From the NCBI RefSeq assembly GCF_003334405.1, contig NZ_QOWM01000008.1: DNA of 64,000 nt; one strand, 5' to 3'. Position numbers and translations under genes: made by a program. Origin of the DNA: Escherichia coli (lineage in GTDB: Bacteria > Pseudomonadota > Gammaproteobacteria > Enterobacterales > Enterobacteriaceae). The notes under the pieces are model-generated. The model did not search any database. It saw only the letters and a list, made by a program, of their open reading frames with translations, and was not told where the DNA came from. This document shows positions 57,271 through 59,817 of the stretch, piece by piece (position 1 is the stretch's first letter; every line of letters starts with the position of its first letter).

Positions 57271-57453
57271 TCATCGATCTTGTATCACTTTTTTGCCGGA
57301 AGTTGTTTGCATTTTATTAGTTGGATAGGGTTTGTGGATTTTTGCTGGCTGACGGGCAAATAAAGTTTGTTTAATGGTTTGCTTATCTGCCAGTTGATTA
57401 ATCACATGGCGGGCTATCTGACCGCCAGCACCAAGAATCAGTACATTTTTCAT
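57271..57453 (-). pseudogene. ymjC: Remnant N-terminal fragment of a NAD(P)-binding Rossmann-fold protein
   Basis: 60 aa ORF starting MKNVLILGAGGQIARHV (GxGxxG dinucleotide-binding motif), far too short for an intact enzyme; C-terminal codons read through the 31 bp repeat at 57285-57315. Confidence 0.6.
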
Positions 57454-57523
57454 GAAAATTATCCCAGATTATTGGCAGCAATATGCCAGTCCATATCACT
57501 ATTGCGGATTTGAATATGTTTCA

Positions 57524-58444
57524 TTACAGAGTTTCCTCAAAGAACGGAGCTAATACTGAAATTGCTTCAGCCACATAGGCTTTGCCGTCATAAAGATCCA
57601 TATGGTTTGCGCCTTCAACAATGTGATAGCGTTTATCCTGGCTTGATGCTCGATCGTACAGGTCGTCACTCATCCATTTGCTCCCTGCCTGGCTGCCCGC
57701 CACAATCTGCGTCGGCTGAGTCAGGTACACTTCCGCCATATGGTAAGCATCATAGGTAATAATCTGGTTAAGGCTGCGCAAAGTAGCGTAACCCGGTGCT
57801 GTTGGATACTGCGCGCGAGGGGTGTGGTAATACTCCCAGGCCTGACGCAGTTCTTCGTTCGGCGCATCGGACTCCTTCATTGGTGCCAGTGGCATAATGG
57901 CGTATTCTCCGCTGCTAATATCGCTGGTTCTGGCGTTTGAACCCGCTTCAACGTATGGCAGGGCATCAATAGATTTCACATTGTTTTCCCAACCATTACG
58001 GAATATCGAACCAATATTGACCGCACTAACGGTACCGATGGCCTTGATGCGGCGATCCTGAATTGCAGCATTGGCTGTATATCCTGCACCGGCACAAATT
58101 CCCATCGCACCAATTCGGGTATTGTCGACATAAGAAAGCGTTGTCAGGTAATCAATCACGGCACTGATGTCTTCAGTACGAATGTATGGGTTTTCTAACT
58201 GACGCGGCTCGCCGCCACTTTCACCTTGATAAGATGCGTCATAAGCAATAGTGACAAATCCCTTTTCCGCCAGTTTTTTGGCATAGGTTCCGGCCGTTTG
58301 TTCTTTAACGCCCCCACCTGGGTGAGATAACACAATTGCCTGATACTGACGGGTTTCATCAAATTTTGGAGGGAAATAGATCACTGCAGACAAAGAGATG
58401 GTTGGATTATTGCTGTTAGTGAAGCTGACTTTATTATTCATCAT
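57524..58444 (-). CDS. ycjY: Alpha/beta hydrolase-fold protein YcjY
   Basis: ORF 57524-58456; start MMNNKVSF at 58444 preceded by GAGGAA gives 306 aa; nucleophile-elbow motif GICAG. Confidence 0.82.
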   Translation of the reverse strand: MMNNKVSFTNSNNPTISLSAVIYFPPKFDETRQYQAIVLSHPGGGVKEQTAGTYAKKLAEKGFVTIAYDASYQGESGGEPRQLENPYIRTEDISAVIDYLTTLSYVDNTRIGAMGICAGAGYTANAAIQDRRIKAIGTVSAVNIGSIFRNGWENNVKSIDALPYVEAGSNARTSDISSGEYAIMPLAPMKESDAPNEELRQAWEYYHTPRAQYPTAPGYATLRSLNQIITYDAYHMAEVYLTQPTQIVAGSQAGSKWMSDDLYDRASSQDKRYHIVEGANHMDLYDGKAYVAEAISVLAPFFEETL

Positions 58445-58581
58445 TCCGTTCCTCATGGAGTTGTCGGTTCGTTTTAACGGTTGGTGATATCACTATAGAT
58501 ATTGATCATTAAGTTGATTAGACCCAAAATCATGATTAGACCTATCATTTAAATGATTAATAGATTGCATGGAGATACTGA

Positions 58582-59481
58582 ATGAAGCGTGAAGAAATCG
58601 CTGATCTGATGGCGTTTGTCGTCGTTGCAGAGGAGCGTAGCTTCACTCGTGCAGCAGCCCGCCTGAGCATGGCGCAGTCAGCTTTAAGCCAGATAGTGCG
58701 TCGTATAGAAGAACGATTGGGATTGCGGCTTCTGACGCGAACCACGCGCAGCGTTGTTCCAACTGAAGCGGGCGAGCATCTTTTGTCTGTTCTTGGCCCT
58801 ATGTTGCATGACATAGATTCAGCCATGGCATCCCTGAGCGATCTGCAGAACCGCCCATCCGGGACAATACGTATTACTACTGTAGAACATGCAGCAAAAA
58901 CGATATTGTTACCAGCAATGCGCACATTCCTGAAATCGCATCCTGAAATTGATATTCAGCTCACCATTGATTATGGTTTGACCGATGTCGTTTCTGAACG
59001 TTTTGATGCAGGCGTCCGTCTGGGTGGGGAGATGGATAAAGATATGATCGCCATTCGAATCGGGCCAGATATACCAATGGCTATTGTTGGCTCACCGGAT
59101 TATTTTTCTCGCCGAAGTGTTCCAACGTCAGTGTCACAATTAATAGATCATCAGGCAATTAATTTGTATCTTCCCACATCGGGTACAGCAAATCGCTGGA
59201 GATTAATACGCGGTGGACGTGAAGTTCGTGTTCGCATGGAAGGTCAGCTTTTACTGAATACGATAGACCTGATCATTGATGCTGCAATTGATGGGCATGG
59301 ATTGGCGTATCTACCTTATGATCAGGTTGAGCGGGCTATTAAAGAAAAAAAACTGATACGTGTTTTGGATAAATTCACACCAGATTTACCCGGTTATCAC
59401 CTGTACTATCCACACCGTCGACATGCTGGCTCGGCATTCTCATTATTTATAGATAGGCTGAAGTATAAAGGTGCTGTTTAG
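58582..59481 (+). CDS. ycjZ: LysR-family transcriptional regulator YcjZ
   Basis: 299 aa ORF, N-terminal LysR HTH (FVVVAEERSFTRAAARLSMAQSALSQ). Confidence 0.9.
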   Translation: MKREEIADLMAFVVVAEERSFTRAAARLSMAQSALSQIVRRIEERLGLRLLTRTTRSVVPTEAGEHLLSVLGPMLHDIDSAMASLSDLQNRPSGTIRITTVEHAAKTILLPAMRTFLKSHPEIDIQLTIDYGLTDVVSERFDAGVRLGGEMDKDMIAIRIGPDIPMAIVGSPDYFSRRSVPTSVSQLIDHQAINLYLPTSGTANRWRLIRGGREVRVRMEGQLLLNTIDLIIDAAIDGHGLAYLPYDQVERAIKEKKLIRVLDKFTPDLPGYHLYYPHRRHAGSAFSLFIDRLKYKGAV

Positions 59482-59817
59482 CACTACTTGCTGATACATT
59501 AATTTAATTCTTCTCTTAACGTATTCTCAGTTCCTTTCAACGTTTTGGTCATTTTTTATTCTTCGTACAATGGCGACAGATGCTGATTATGATACCGAAA
59601 ACGGGTTTGAACGTGCGAAGCCCGAACGTAGTGTTCGGAGTTCTATGTGCTTTACCGCATTTTGGAGACTATTATTTACACTAAATCTGATTTGATATAT
59701 TGATACTTAAAACATTTGATGCTTCCTTTGTCACTTTTTTGATGGAAGTTGTTTGCATTTCTTTAAGGCGAAACAAATAATTACGCATCAATTTTAATGT
59801 CGGTTAGAGGGAAACTT

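Follow-up and report, generated by a model that had tools for sequence, protein, structure and literature searches.

A direct repeat around the ycjY-pgrR block of Escherichia coli as a probable scar of insertion into a control region once shared by mpaA and mppA

In the stretch of Escherichia coli DNA analyzed in this work (64 kb, referred to as the window), a block of genes lying between mpaA and mppA is bracketed by two copies of a 31-base sequence. These repeats are very probably a duplicated piece of an old control region shared by mpaA and mppA, left there by insertion of the block, and they represent the ordinary insertion scar of an islet bounded by direct repeats. This reading would explain the gene order of K-12, in which a divergent ancestral pair, mpaA/mppA, was split by an acquired cassette, and PgrR, known as the 'regulator of peptidoglycan recycling', would have arrived with that cassette. 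The features of the locus are collected in Table 1.

Table 1. Features of the mpaA-mppA locus, with positions in the window.
Feature	Position	Strand	Remarks
mpaA, murein tripeptide amidase	56461-57189	-	NF007897, 478 bits
Conserved mpaA-side spacer blocks GGCAGTGTTGTGCAAA and TATCAAATCCTTTTC	57218-57258	-	
ymjC' remnant ORF (5' remnant of NmrA-type SDR gene)	57271-57453	-	
Repeat copy 1, TCACTTTTTTGCCGGAAGTTGTTTGCATTTT	57285-57315	+	attL-like
Junction of 665-bp deletion, K-12-like form only	57314-57315		alignment with strain 550 and O157
Inserted block, reduced K-12-like form (ymjC', ycjY, pgrR/ycjZ, non-coding tail)	57316-59730		
ycjY, alpha/beta hydrolase, block gene	57524-58456	-	
pgrR/ycjZ, LysR regulator, block gene	58582-59481	+	
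Non-coding block tail	59482-59730		249 bp
Repeat copy 2, TCACTTTTTTGATGGAAGTTGTTTGCATTTC	59731-59761	+	attR-like
Predicted sigma-70 promoter of mppA, TTTGCA-18 nt-AATAAT	59752-59781	+	consensus scan
GAAACAAATAATTAC, most conserved block of ancestral spacer, includes predicted -10 box	59770-59784	+	
mppA, murein tripeptide binding protein	59818-61431	+	same name in RefSeq E. coli genomes

A sequence-only reading of the window had described the two copies as a near-identical direct repeat with 28 of 31 positions matching in the same orientation; their positions, strand and identity hold, as do the gene names it assigned (mpaA, ymjC', ycjY, ycjZ and mppA). It had also placed the similarity beyond chance, and 100 shuffles of the window that preserved its dinucleotides never gave two matches, with the second counted at 3 mismatches or fewer. 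Ungapped extension widens the repeats to 42 nt at 83% identity (57278-57319 versus 59724-59765); a longer duplication was rejected, as the flanks outside share no similarity. The window contains two motif matches in total, and E. coli genomes carry a median of two, corresponding to the copy 1 and copy 2 loci. A dispersed intergenic repeat family (REP, ERIC and similar) was therefore rejected, since the motif occurs at two places per genome rather than at many. A known RNA family was also considered and dropped: no Rfam covariance model matched, and two sub-threshold chance hits lie elsewhere in the block.

The state of the locus before insertion can be seen in related bacteria. In 72 of 80 Enterobacteriaceae species loci, mpaA has a true mppA orthologue (80-99% amino acid identity) as its divergent neighbor; among these loci are ones from Citrobacter, Enterobacter, Leclercia, Lelliottia, Kluyvera, Pluralibacter, Raoultella, E. 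albertii and E. whittamii. The idea of a hypervariable mppA was dropped, since in-frame comparison gave identities of 80-99.8%. The spacer between them measures about 185 bp (mostly 177-207, with extremes of 139 and 320) and contains one motif at a constant position, about 95 nt from the mpaA start. Because neighbors arranged in this way carry one motif, the single copy is, on this comparative evidence, the ancestral state. The expectation that mpaA and mppA would adjoin with one motif copy wherever ycjY/ycjZ are absent was thus borne out by these 72 species loci as well as by 173 E. coli genomes, while not a single genome was found with two copies and no block. Within the ancestral spacer, about 70 species share the conserved motif columns TCA.yTTT, AAG and TTTGCAtTTC. 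The promoter or operator of mpaA itself probably lies in the conserved mpaA-side blocks, where a consensus scan gave no convincing hexamer pair.

Each of the two copies in E. coli retains a different part of this ancestral sequence. Copy 1, situated 95 nt upstream of the mpaA start codon, continues the ancestral mpaA-side spacer through its left flank and first 30 bases, and matches the single copy of empty sites exactly as far as GCATTT; the right part of copy 2, together with its right flank, is the ancestral mppA-side spacer. At repeat positions 11-13, copy 2 reads GAT instead of GCC (the differing bases being 12-13). None of 5,239 block-bearing E. coli genomes has GCC in copy 2, all carrying GAT or a further variant, and a scheme in which the copies were initially identical and AT arose late was rejected, as the GCC copy 2 expected in E. 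coli is absent. In O157, copy 2 has an additional T deletion and a T-to-C change, and TTTGCA of copy 1 has become TTTGTA. In both copies, it is the insert-facing half that has decayed.

Among 5,426 complete E. coli genomes, 173 have mpaA and mppA adjacent, with the block absent and exactly one motif copy, which runs from the left flank and arm of copy 1 into the right flank of copy 2. Fourteen of these junctions are chimeric, consisting of the copy-1 left flank, TCACTTTTTTG, the AT (GAT) variant of copy 2 and the mppA flank. Because they join the copy-1 left flank to the copy-2 variant, these 14 empty sites are repeat-mediated deletions of the block; one such strain, CP131_Sichuan, shows 0.0% difference from the window over 1.8 kb of flank per side. 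In about 150 empty sites of phylogroup F (IAI39, CE10, ST648), the GCC junction is identical to the ancestral sequence and could represent either retained ancestry or deletion, as it fits both. No recent GCC-type deletions were found in a K-12 background.

The repeats also mark the limits of an exchange between Escherichia lineages. Escherichia sp. E1V33 has native flanks that differ from those of E. coli by 11-14%, while the block interior differs by 2.9% and pgrR by 1.8-2.0%, which equals the divergence between E. coli lineages. The change in divergence falls no more than 13 nt from copy 1 at one end and inside copy 2 at the other. This pattern shows, at the level of sequence comparison, that the repeats delimit the exchanged block, and it places one islet at the identical site in two Escherichia species. 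Copy 2 of E1V33 carries GCC, while a simple single-crossover model predicts GAT.

The E. coli cassette comprises an NmrA-type SDR gene, two alpha/beta hydrolase genes and the gene of the LysR regulator PgrR, roughly 4 kb altogether. Its gene order recurs identically on Klebsiella conjugative plasmids (79% nucleotide identity), in the chromosomes of Raoultella and Kluyvera, where its surroundings vary, and on plasmids of Agrobacterium and Rhizobium (68-69% identity); this distribution identifies the cassette as horizontally acquired and foreign to E. coli. The block diverges by 1.4-1.8%, which makes the insertion about as old as the species. No recombinase or transposase gene is present in the block, nor was an integrase remnant found there by tblastx against an integrase fragment of Kluyvera. 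In Kluyvera cryocrescens, that Phage_integrase fragment adjoins the LysR end of the cassette. Next to the cassette of Klebsiella, Raoultella and Kluyvera, no motif-like sequence occurs within 8-9 mismatches, and these three genera lack homologues of the E. coli-specific ends of the block (about 95 bp at the left end, next to copy 1 in undeleted strains, and 249 bp at the right end).

The window carries a reduced, K-12-like form of the block. A 665-bp deletion, whose left breakpoint is the 3' end of copy 1, truncated the SDR gene at its 3' side and removed the adjoining 165-bp downstream spacer, which in the undeleted form contains a terminator-like hairpin. Copy 1 falls within the 3' end of the ymjC' remnant ORF, an overlap produced accidentally by this deletion, which is confined to the K-12-like form.

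In the proposed course of events, a roughly 4-kb acquired cassette would have entered, in the E. coli lineage, the conserved central element of the divergent promoter spacer that lay between mpaA and mppA in the ancestor, duplicating that element at both edges. Copy 1 would have remained on the mpaA side and copy 2 on the mppA side, so that neither gene lost its own part of the element. The likeliest origin of the duplication appears to be Campbell-type integration of a circular DNA carrying a motif-like sequence, with repair of a long staggered break as an alternative; the GCC of E1V33 copy 2 speaks against a simple single crossover. At present, the repeats serve mainly as short homologies; as the chimeric junctions show, recombination at them deletes the block precisely and restores the single-copy site. 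The earlier suggestion of a duplication scar from insertion of the block is therefore well supported, since one motif is found wherever the block is absent.

The same reading had offered a shared regulatory site as an alternative, which has weak support. The motif is conserved in the ancestral divergent promoter spacer, and the predicted -35 hexamer of mppA, TTTGCA, lies within the right half of copy 2. Both predicted hexamers fall in columns conserved across 72 species and are among the most conserved of the spacer. Their 18-nt spacing agrees with the sigma-70 range of 16-18 nt and they lie upstream of mppA; the assignment is a consensus match, and the scan yielded no more sites than shuffled sequence did. 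The right half of copy 2 may thus still supply the -35 region of mppA. A sigma-54 promoter was rejected, as tGGAAGT-N3-TTGCA is one base short of the TGGCACG-N4-TTGCW spacing and its GG is not conserved in other genera. It is quite improbable that the whole 31-mer is a transcription factor operator of mpaA and mppA, with both copies kept by selection for co-regulation. Such a view would draw on the motif columns conserved across about 70 species, on the single pathway to which both genes belong, and on the retention of both copies in more than 5,200 E. coli genomes. However, the decay of the insert-facing halves (CC to AT in copy 2 of all E. coli, and both copies in O157) argues against selection preserving the 31-mer as one operator at both genes, and the 28/31 identity needs no selection, because the insertion is about as old as E. 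coli. Moreover, the genera compared share no dyad symmetry in the motif. Among candidate regulators, a PgrR operator at the repeats was not favored, as the one SELEX site reported for this region (PMC5934670) is the ycjY/ycjZ spacer. A CRP site with TCAC of the motif as one half was set aside, as the other half fits at only 2 of 5 positions. The sequence predicted as a CRP site in the ycjZ/mppA spacer of ETEC (CGTGAACCGGGTCACA) is a different one, with no match in that spacer of the window. As for mere resemblance of two AT-rich promoter regions, by chance or by convergence, both copies do lie in AT-rich intergenic DNA upstream of genes, but the probability is close to nil in view of the shuffles, the empty sites that connect both flanks exactly via a single copy, and the chimeric junctions.

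The repeats might instead be attL and attR, with the block being a cis-mobilisable islet inserted and excised at the motif by a tyrosine recombinase acting in trans. The layout of flanking direct repeats, single-copy empty site and foreign cargo agrees with this explanation, and the three differences between the copies sort as in an attB x attP exchange, with insert-facing parts holding non-ancestral bases. The E. coli-type block at the identical site in another Escherichia species, the Phage_integrase fragment of K. cryocrescens and the K-12 deletion that begins exactly at the 3' edge of the motif point in the same direction, as does an unrelated cdtB islet in Salmonella arizonae/diarizonae, whose left breakpoint lies inside the motif. 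Nevertheless, the cdtB islet was inserted without duplication and replaced mppA promoter blocks, and copy 2 of E1V33 departs from the single-crossover prediction. An att-type mechanism is unproven because the E. coli block has neither a recombinase or transposase gene nor an integrase remnant in or beside it, and no attP-like motif accompanies the cassette on plasmids or in other genera; we regard this explanation as unlikely. It is also very doubtful that the motif is a true attachment site, cleaved at GCATTT|, at which an integrase-less cassette circularises and re-integrates through a recombinase in trans and which acts as a preferred landing point. If true, this cleavage point would account for the start of the 665-bp deletion, and unrelated islets, for example cdtB, would be expected to land preferentially at the motif.

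The insertion scar can be compared with known systems. As in repeat-bounded islets (attL/attR, integrase-less cis-mobilisable elements), repeats tens of bases long and in one orientation border the foreign genes at the exact edges of the insert, related genomes have a single-copy empty site that joins the flanks, the block is lost precisely, and the duplication spares the interrupted host function, here two divergent promoters. In contrast to such islets, no cognate integrase is encoded in or beside the block, no attP-like partner is found on the cassette elsewhere, and the insertion hit a promoter core, not a tRNA or the end of a gene; the data fit short-homology recombination as well as a site-specific cut. 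Deletion between short direct repeats, whether RecA-dependent or by replication slippage, likewise removes DNA precisely and leaves one hybrid repeat, and a chimeric junction is its classic signature. Here 2.4-4 kb separates the repeats, and in the documented cases the crossover lies within only 11 identical bases; this distance and tract disfavor slippage. Target-site duplications of transposons and IS elements also place a copied stretch on both sides of an insert; they are known to span 2-14 bp. The duplication of 31-42 bp is far above that length, which counts against insertion of this kind, and such insertion was rejected, there being also no inverted repeats pairing the block ends and no transposase. 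The locus offers a natural, well-sampled case in which a short repeat mediates precise loss of an islet, and it leaves general principles unchanged.

The block had also been called unrelated to the murein genes, which is not simply so, since its LysR regulator is reported to control the ycjY-ymjD-ymjC-mpaA operon (PMC5934670). This operon spans copy 1, and the PgrR regulon described for E. coli K-12 (Shimada et al. 2013, cited in PMC5934670 and PMC5493296) comprises the same genes. The arrangement of the locus suggests that PgrR control of mpaA is a by-product of the cassette landing upstream, combined with loss of the terminator in K-12-like strains. Elsewhere, PgrR orthologues adjoin the SDR/hydrolase genes of the cassette, and PgrR is missing from phylogroup F and, at the mpaA-mppA locus, from most other Enterobacteriaceae.

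Genome comparison indicates that the genes lying between mpaA and mppA are an insertion into an ancestral spacer that held a single copy of a 31-nt motif, a sequence now present at both ends of the inserted block. In the window, copy 1 (57285-57315, mpaA side) and copy 2 (59731-59761, mppA side) are both on the + strand and identical at 28/31 positions, and dinucleotide-preserving shuffles of the 64-kb window gave no second match at ≤3 mismatches. The repeat pair described in the sequence-only reading was confirmed in position, strand and similarity, as was the gene order around it (mpaA, ymjC', ycjY, ycjZ, mppA). 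Ungapped extension lengthens the repeat to 42 nt with 83% identity (57278-57319 vs 59724-59765), and the flanks of the two copies show no relatedness outside this extension. Copy 1 begins 95 nt upstream of the mpaA start codon, and copy 2 ends 56 nt upstream of that of mppA.

Genes around the repeats in the window, forms of the block in E. coli and conserved segments of the mpaA-mppA spacer
Feature	Coordinates	Strand	Description
ycjG			neighbouring gene, beside mpaA
mpaA	56461-57189	-	
ymjC'	57271-57453	-	remnant ORF, 60 codons
ycjY	57524-58456	-	
pgrR/ycjZ	58582-59481	+	
mppA	59818-61431	+	
Block form 1			K-12-like, as in the window
Block form 2			665 extra bases, intact 212-aa NmrA-type SDR gene; strain 550 (L002)
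Block form 3			~1.5 kb extra: SDR gene and second alpha/beta hydrolase gene, the latter frameshifted in O157 (L003)
Spacer segment 1			GGCAGTGTTGTGCAAAA; mpaA side
Spacer segment 2			AATCAAATAGTTTC; mpaA side
Spacer segment 3			motif, consensus TCAAyTTT-N8-AAG-N4-TTTGCAtTTC
Spacer segment 4			GAAACAAATAATTAC; nine bases beyond the motif
Spacer segment 5			mppA ribosome-binding site

The two genes are adjacent in 173 of 5,426 E. coli genomes, including strain CLSC36, whose 182-bp spacer consists of the copy-1 left flank, a single motif (TCACTTTTTTGCCGGAAGTTGTTTGCATTTC) and the copy-2 right flank. This is the arrangement predicted earlier for genomes without the block. An MpaA scan with one genome per species yielded 80 loci, 72 of which have a true mppA orthologue (80-99% identity) adjoining mpaA divergently, across a spacer of ~185 bp (most 177-207, extremes 139-320). 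These loci represent E. albertii, E. whittamii and three other Escherichia lineages, as well as Citrobacter, Enterobacter, Leclercia, Lelliottia, Kluyvera, Pluralibacter, Trabulsiella and Raoultella, among others, and most contain one motif ~95 nt from the mpaA start. The sole outgroup locus with the block is that of Escherichia sp. E1V33; because the block is otherwise missing from the outgroups and most of their adjacent pairs share a single motif, the single-copy adjacent state is ancestral and the block an insertion. At the ynaI-mppA gap, which measures 50 bp in E. coli, ~3.2 kb of extra DNA was observed in other Escherichia species (L005, L008, L012).

The repeats also mark where the block has been lost. 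A test junction was built from the copy-1 left flank, the variant of copy 2 reading GAT at repeat positions 11-13, and the copy-2 right flank; it is present at 100% identity in four genomes and at 99% in ten more, at one place per genome, and the chimera was confirmed by sequence in two loci (L084 and L085). Position 13 is C in every other Escherichia lineage, four of the five reading (G/A)CC and L008 reading GAC, and T in the GAT variant. Since GAT is otherwise limited to copy 2 of block-bearing E. coli, the 14 genomes represent deletions with a crossover in the first 11 repeat bases. CP131_Sichuan matches the window without a difference over 1.8 kb to either side, so its deletion is recent and took place in a K-12-like background; at least three flank backgrounds carry the GAT-type junction. 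The remaining ~150 empty sites, such as those of IAI39, CE10 and ST648 strains (which we take to be phylogroup F), read GCC and equal the ancestral sequence; they may represent either retained ancestry or deletion of the block through the 17-base segment.

Exchange between species follows the same boundaries. The flanks of E1V33 differ from E. coli by 11-14% and are closest to E. whittamii, while its block interior differs from the window by 2.9% and shares the 665-bp deletion junction; its pgrR lies 1.8-2.0% from E. coli alleles, no more than these differ from each other. On the left, native sequence gives way to E. coli-type sequence within 13 nt of copy 1; on the right, copy 2 has native (whittamii-type) bases starting at repeat position 12. 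The E1V33 lineage therefore acquired its block from E. coli, with the repeats as its limits.

Within E. coli, 5,419 of 5,426 complete genomes match a 3.2-kb regional query, most of which is present in 5,217. Three block forms are known among the genomes compared, all retaining copy 1 in alignment. The 665-bp deletion of the K-12-like form (window junction 57314/57315; removed stretch L002 1916-2580; 1 nt of microhomology) has its left edge at the exact 3' end of copy 1, after GCATTT, and only because of it does copy 1 overlap the ymjC' ORF. The second hydrolase gene (L003 2740-3670, O157:H7), frameshifted in O157, has been lost entirely by deletion from the K-12-like and B2-like forms; decay of the cassette is thus following several independent routes. 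IS elements (ISVsa5/IS4-like, IS3 family, IS421) lie in or beside the block in several E. coli genomes (H1, H11, H12, H15, H40). The non-coding pgrR-mppA spacer (59482-59817) is unusually variable among E. coli lineages, by ~5-8% around 59600-59730.

One possible origin of the duplication is integration of a DNA circle with a motif-like sequence of its own, the crossover falling in the 17-base identical core. All three positions at which the copies differ follow one pattern, with ancestral bases toward each copy's own gene and non-ancestral bases toward the insert, and every one of the 5,239 block-bearing E. coli genomes has GAT or a derivative. An exact duplication that then mutated early on also fits this pattern, with just three positions to inform the choice between it and circle integration. 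For entry of the block into the E1V33 lineage, one crossover with a circle derived from E. coli should have left GAT in copy 2, which instead reads GCC. The block contains no recombinase gene, and transposon target duplications are far shorter than the one seen here.

Relatives of the cassette are found in other hosts. The four genes of the O157 block recur on plasmids of Klebsiella aerogenes, K. variicola and K. pneumoniae, where 88-89% of the block aligns at 79% identity; identity to Agrobacterium and Rhizobium plasmids is 68-69%. PgrR homologues form two groups, an E. coli cluster (94-99% identity) and a group at 87-89% from Klebsiella, Raoultella, Kluyvera, Citrobacter, Enterobacter, Salmonella and Pantoea, often on plasmids, in which the cassette location differs among hosts and two further oxidoreductase genes are sometimes present. 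The full SDR/hydrolase/hydrolase/LysR cassette occupies 90817-94365 (L086) of the 215-kb conjugative K. aerogenes plasmid pC9_001 (MOBF, MPF_F), between galactonate-catabolism genes and betT. In Kluyvera cryocrescens, the cassette LysR gene is followed directly by a Phage_integrase-domain gene fragment (L090 7000-7602, L092 7000-7437) for which E. coli has no counterpart. Homology of these cassettes to the E. coli block ends at the pgrR stop codon and ~70 nt past the SDR stop codon; the ~95 bp beside copy 1 and 249 bp beside copy 2 have no counterpart in them, and no motif-like sequence was found beside the cassette in those hosts. A different ~3.2 kb insertion between mpaA and mppA was observed in Salmonella enterica subsp. 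arizonae and diarizonae (L024 4848-8000, L026 4562-8000), with three ORFs, of which the middle one encodes a cytolethal distending toxin subunit of the CdtB family. The ancestral spacer of L026 continues into the motif (…TCAACTTTCTGCCGGA), where it is cut off; other sequence replaces the mppA promoter segments, and there is no duplication.

Following the insertion, mpaA and mppA would each have kept their own side of the old spacer and a full motif copy. Alignment of the 72 spacers revealed five conserved segments, and a consensus scan found TTTGCA-18-AATAAT at 59752-59781, a position that places a predicted mppA -35 box in the right half of the motif and the predicted -10 in segment 4; conservation supports this candidate promoter. 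No convincing hexamer pair was found for mpaA, and the motif holds no dyad conserved across genera. A sigma-54 promoter was rejected, its spacing being one base short and its GG not conserved. In O157, TTTGCA of copy 1 has become TTTGTA, and copy 2 has one T missing and another changed, both in its left half; CC has become AT in the copy-2 left half of all E. coli. Each copy is thus drifting in its insert-facing half, which suggests that the right half functions for mppA and the left, if it has any role, for mpaA, and that the 31-mer is not kept as one operator at both genes. Of the two explanations offered in the sequence-only reading, a shared operator finds little support, and a duplication scar is upheld and extended by the single-copy empty sites and outgroups and by the chimeric junctions. 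The scar consists of a duplicated, predicted promoter core through which an acquired islet is now being lost and exchanged, and it adds a further case to a known type of feature.

A CRP ChIP-seq peak was reported between ycjZ and mppA in ETEC H10407, with the predicted site CGTGAACCGGGTCACA (PMC4287617), which has no match at ≤3 mismatches in the pgrR-mppA spacer of the window (59482-59817). Undeleted strains carry, 3' of the SDR gene, a terminator-like hairpin in - strand orientation (L002 2061-2037) whose 11-bp stem leads into TTTATTAAAC, and the K-12-type deletion removes it. This loss fits the K-12 operon ycjY-ymjD-ymjC-mpaA reported under PgrR control (PMC5934670), so that PgrR control of mpaA appears to be a by-product of the insertion.
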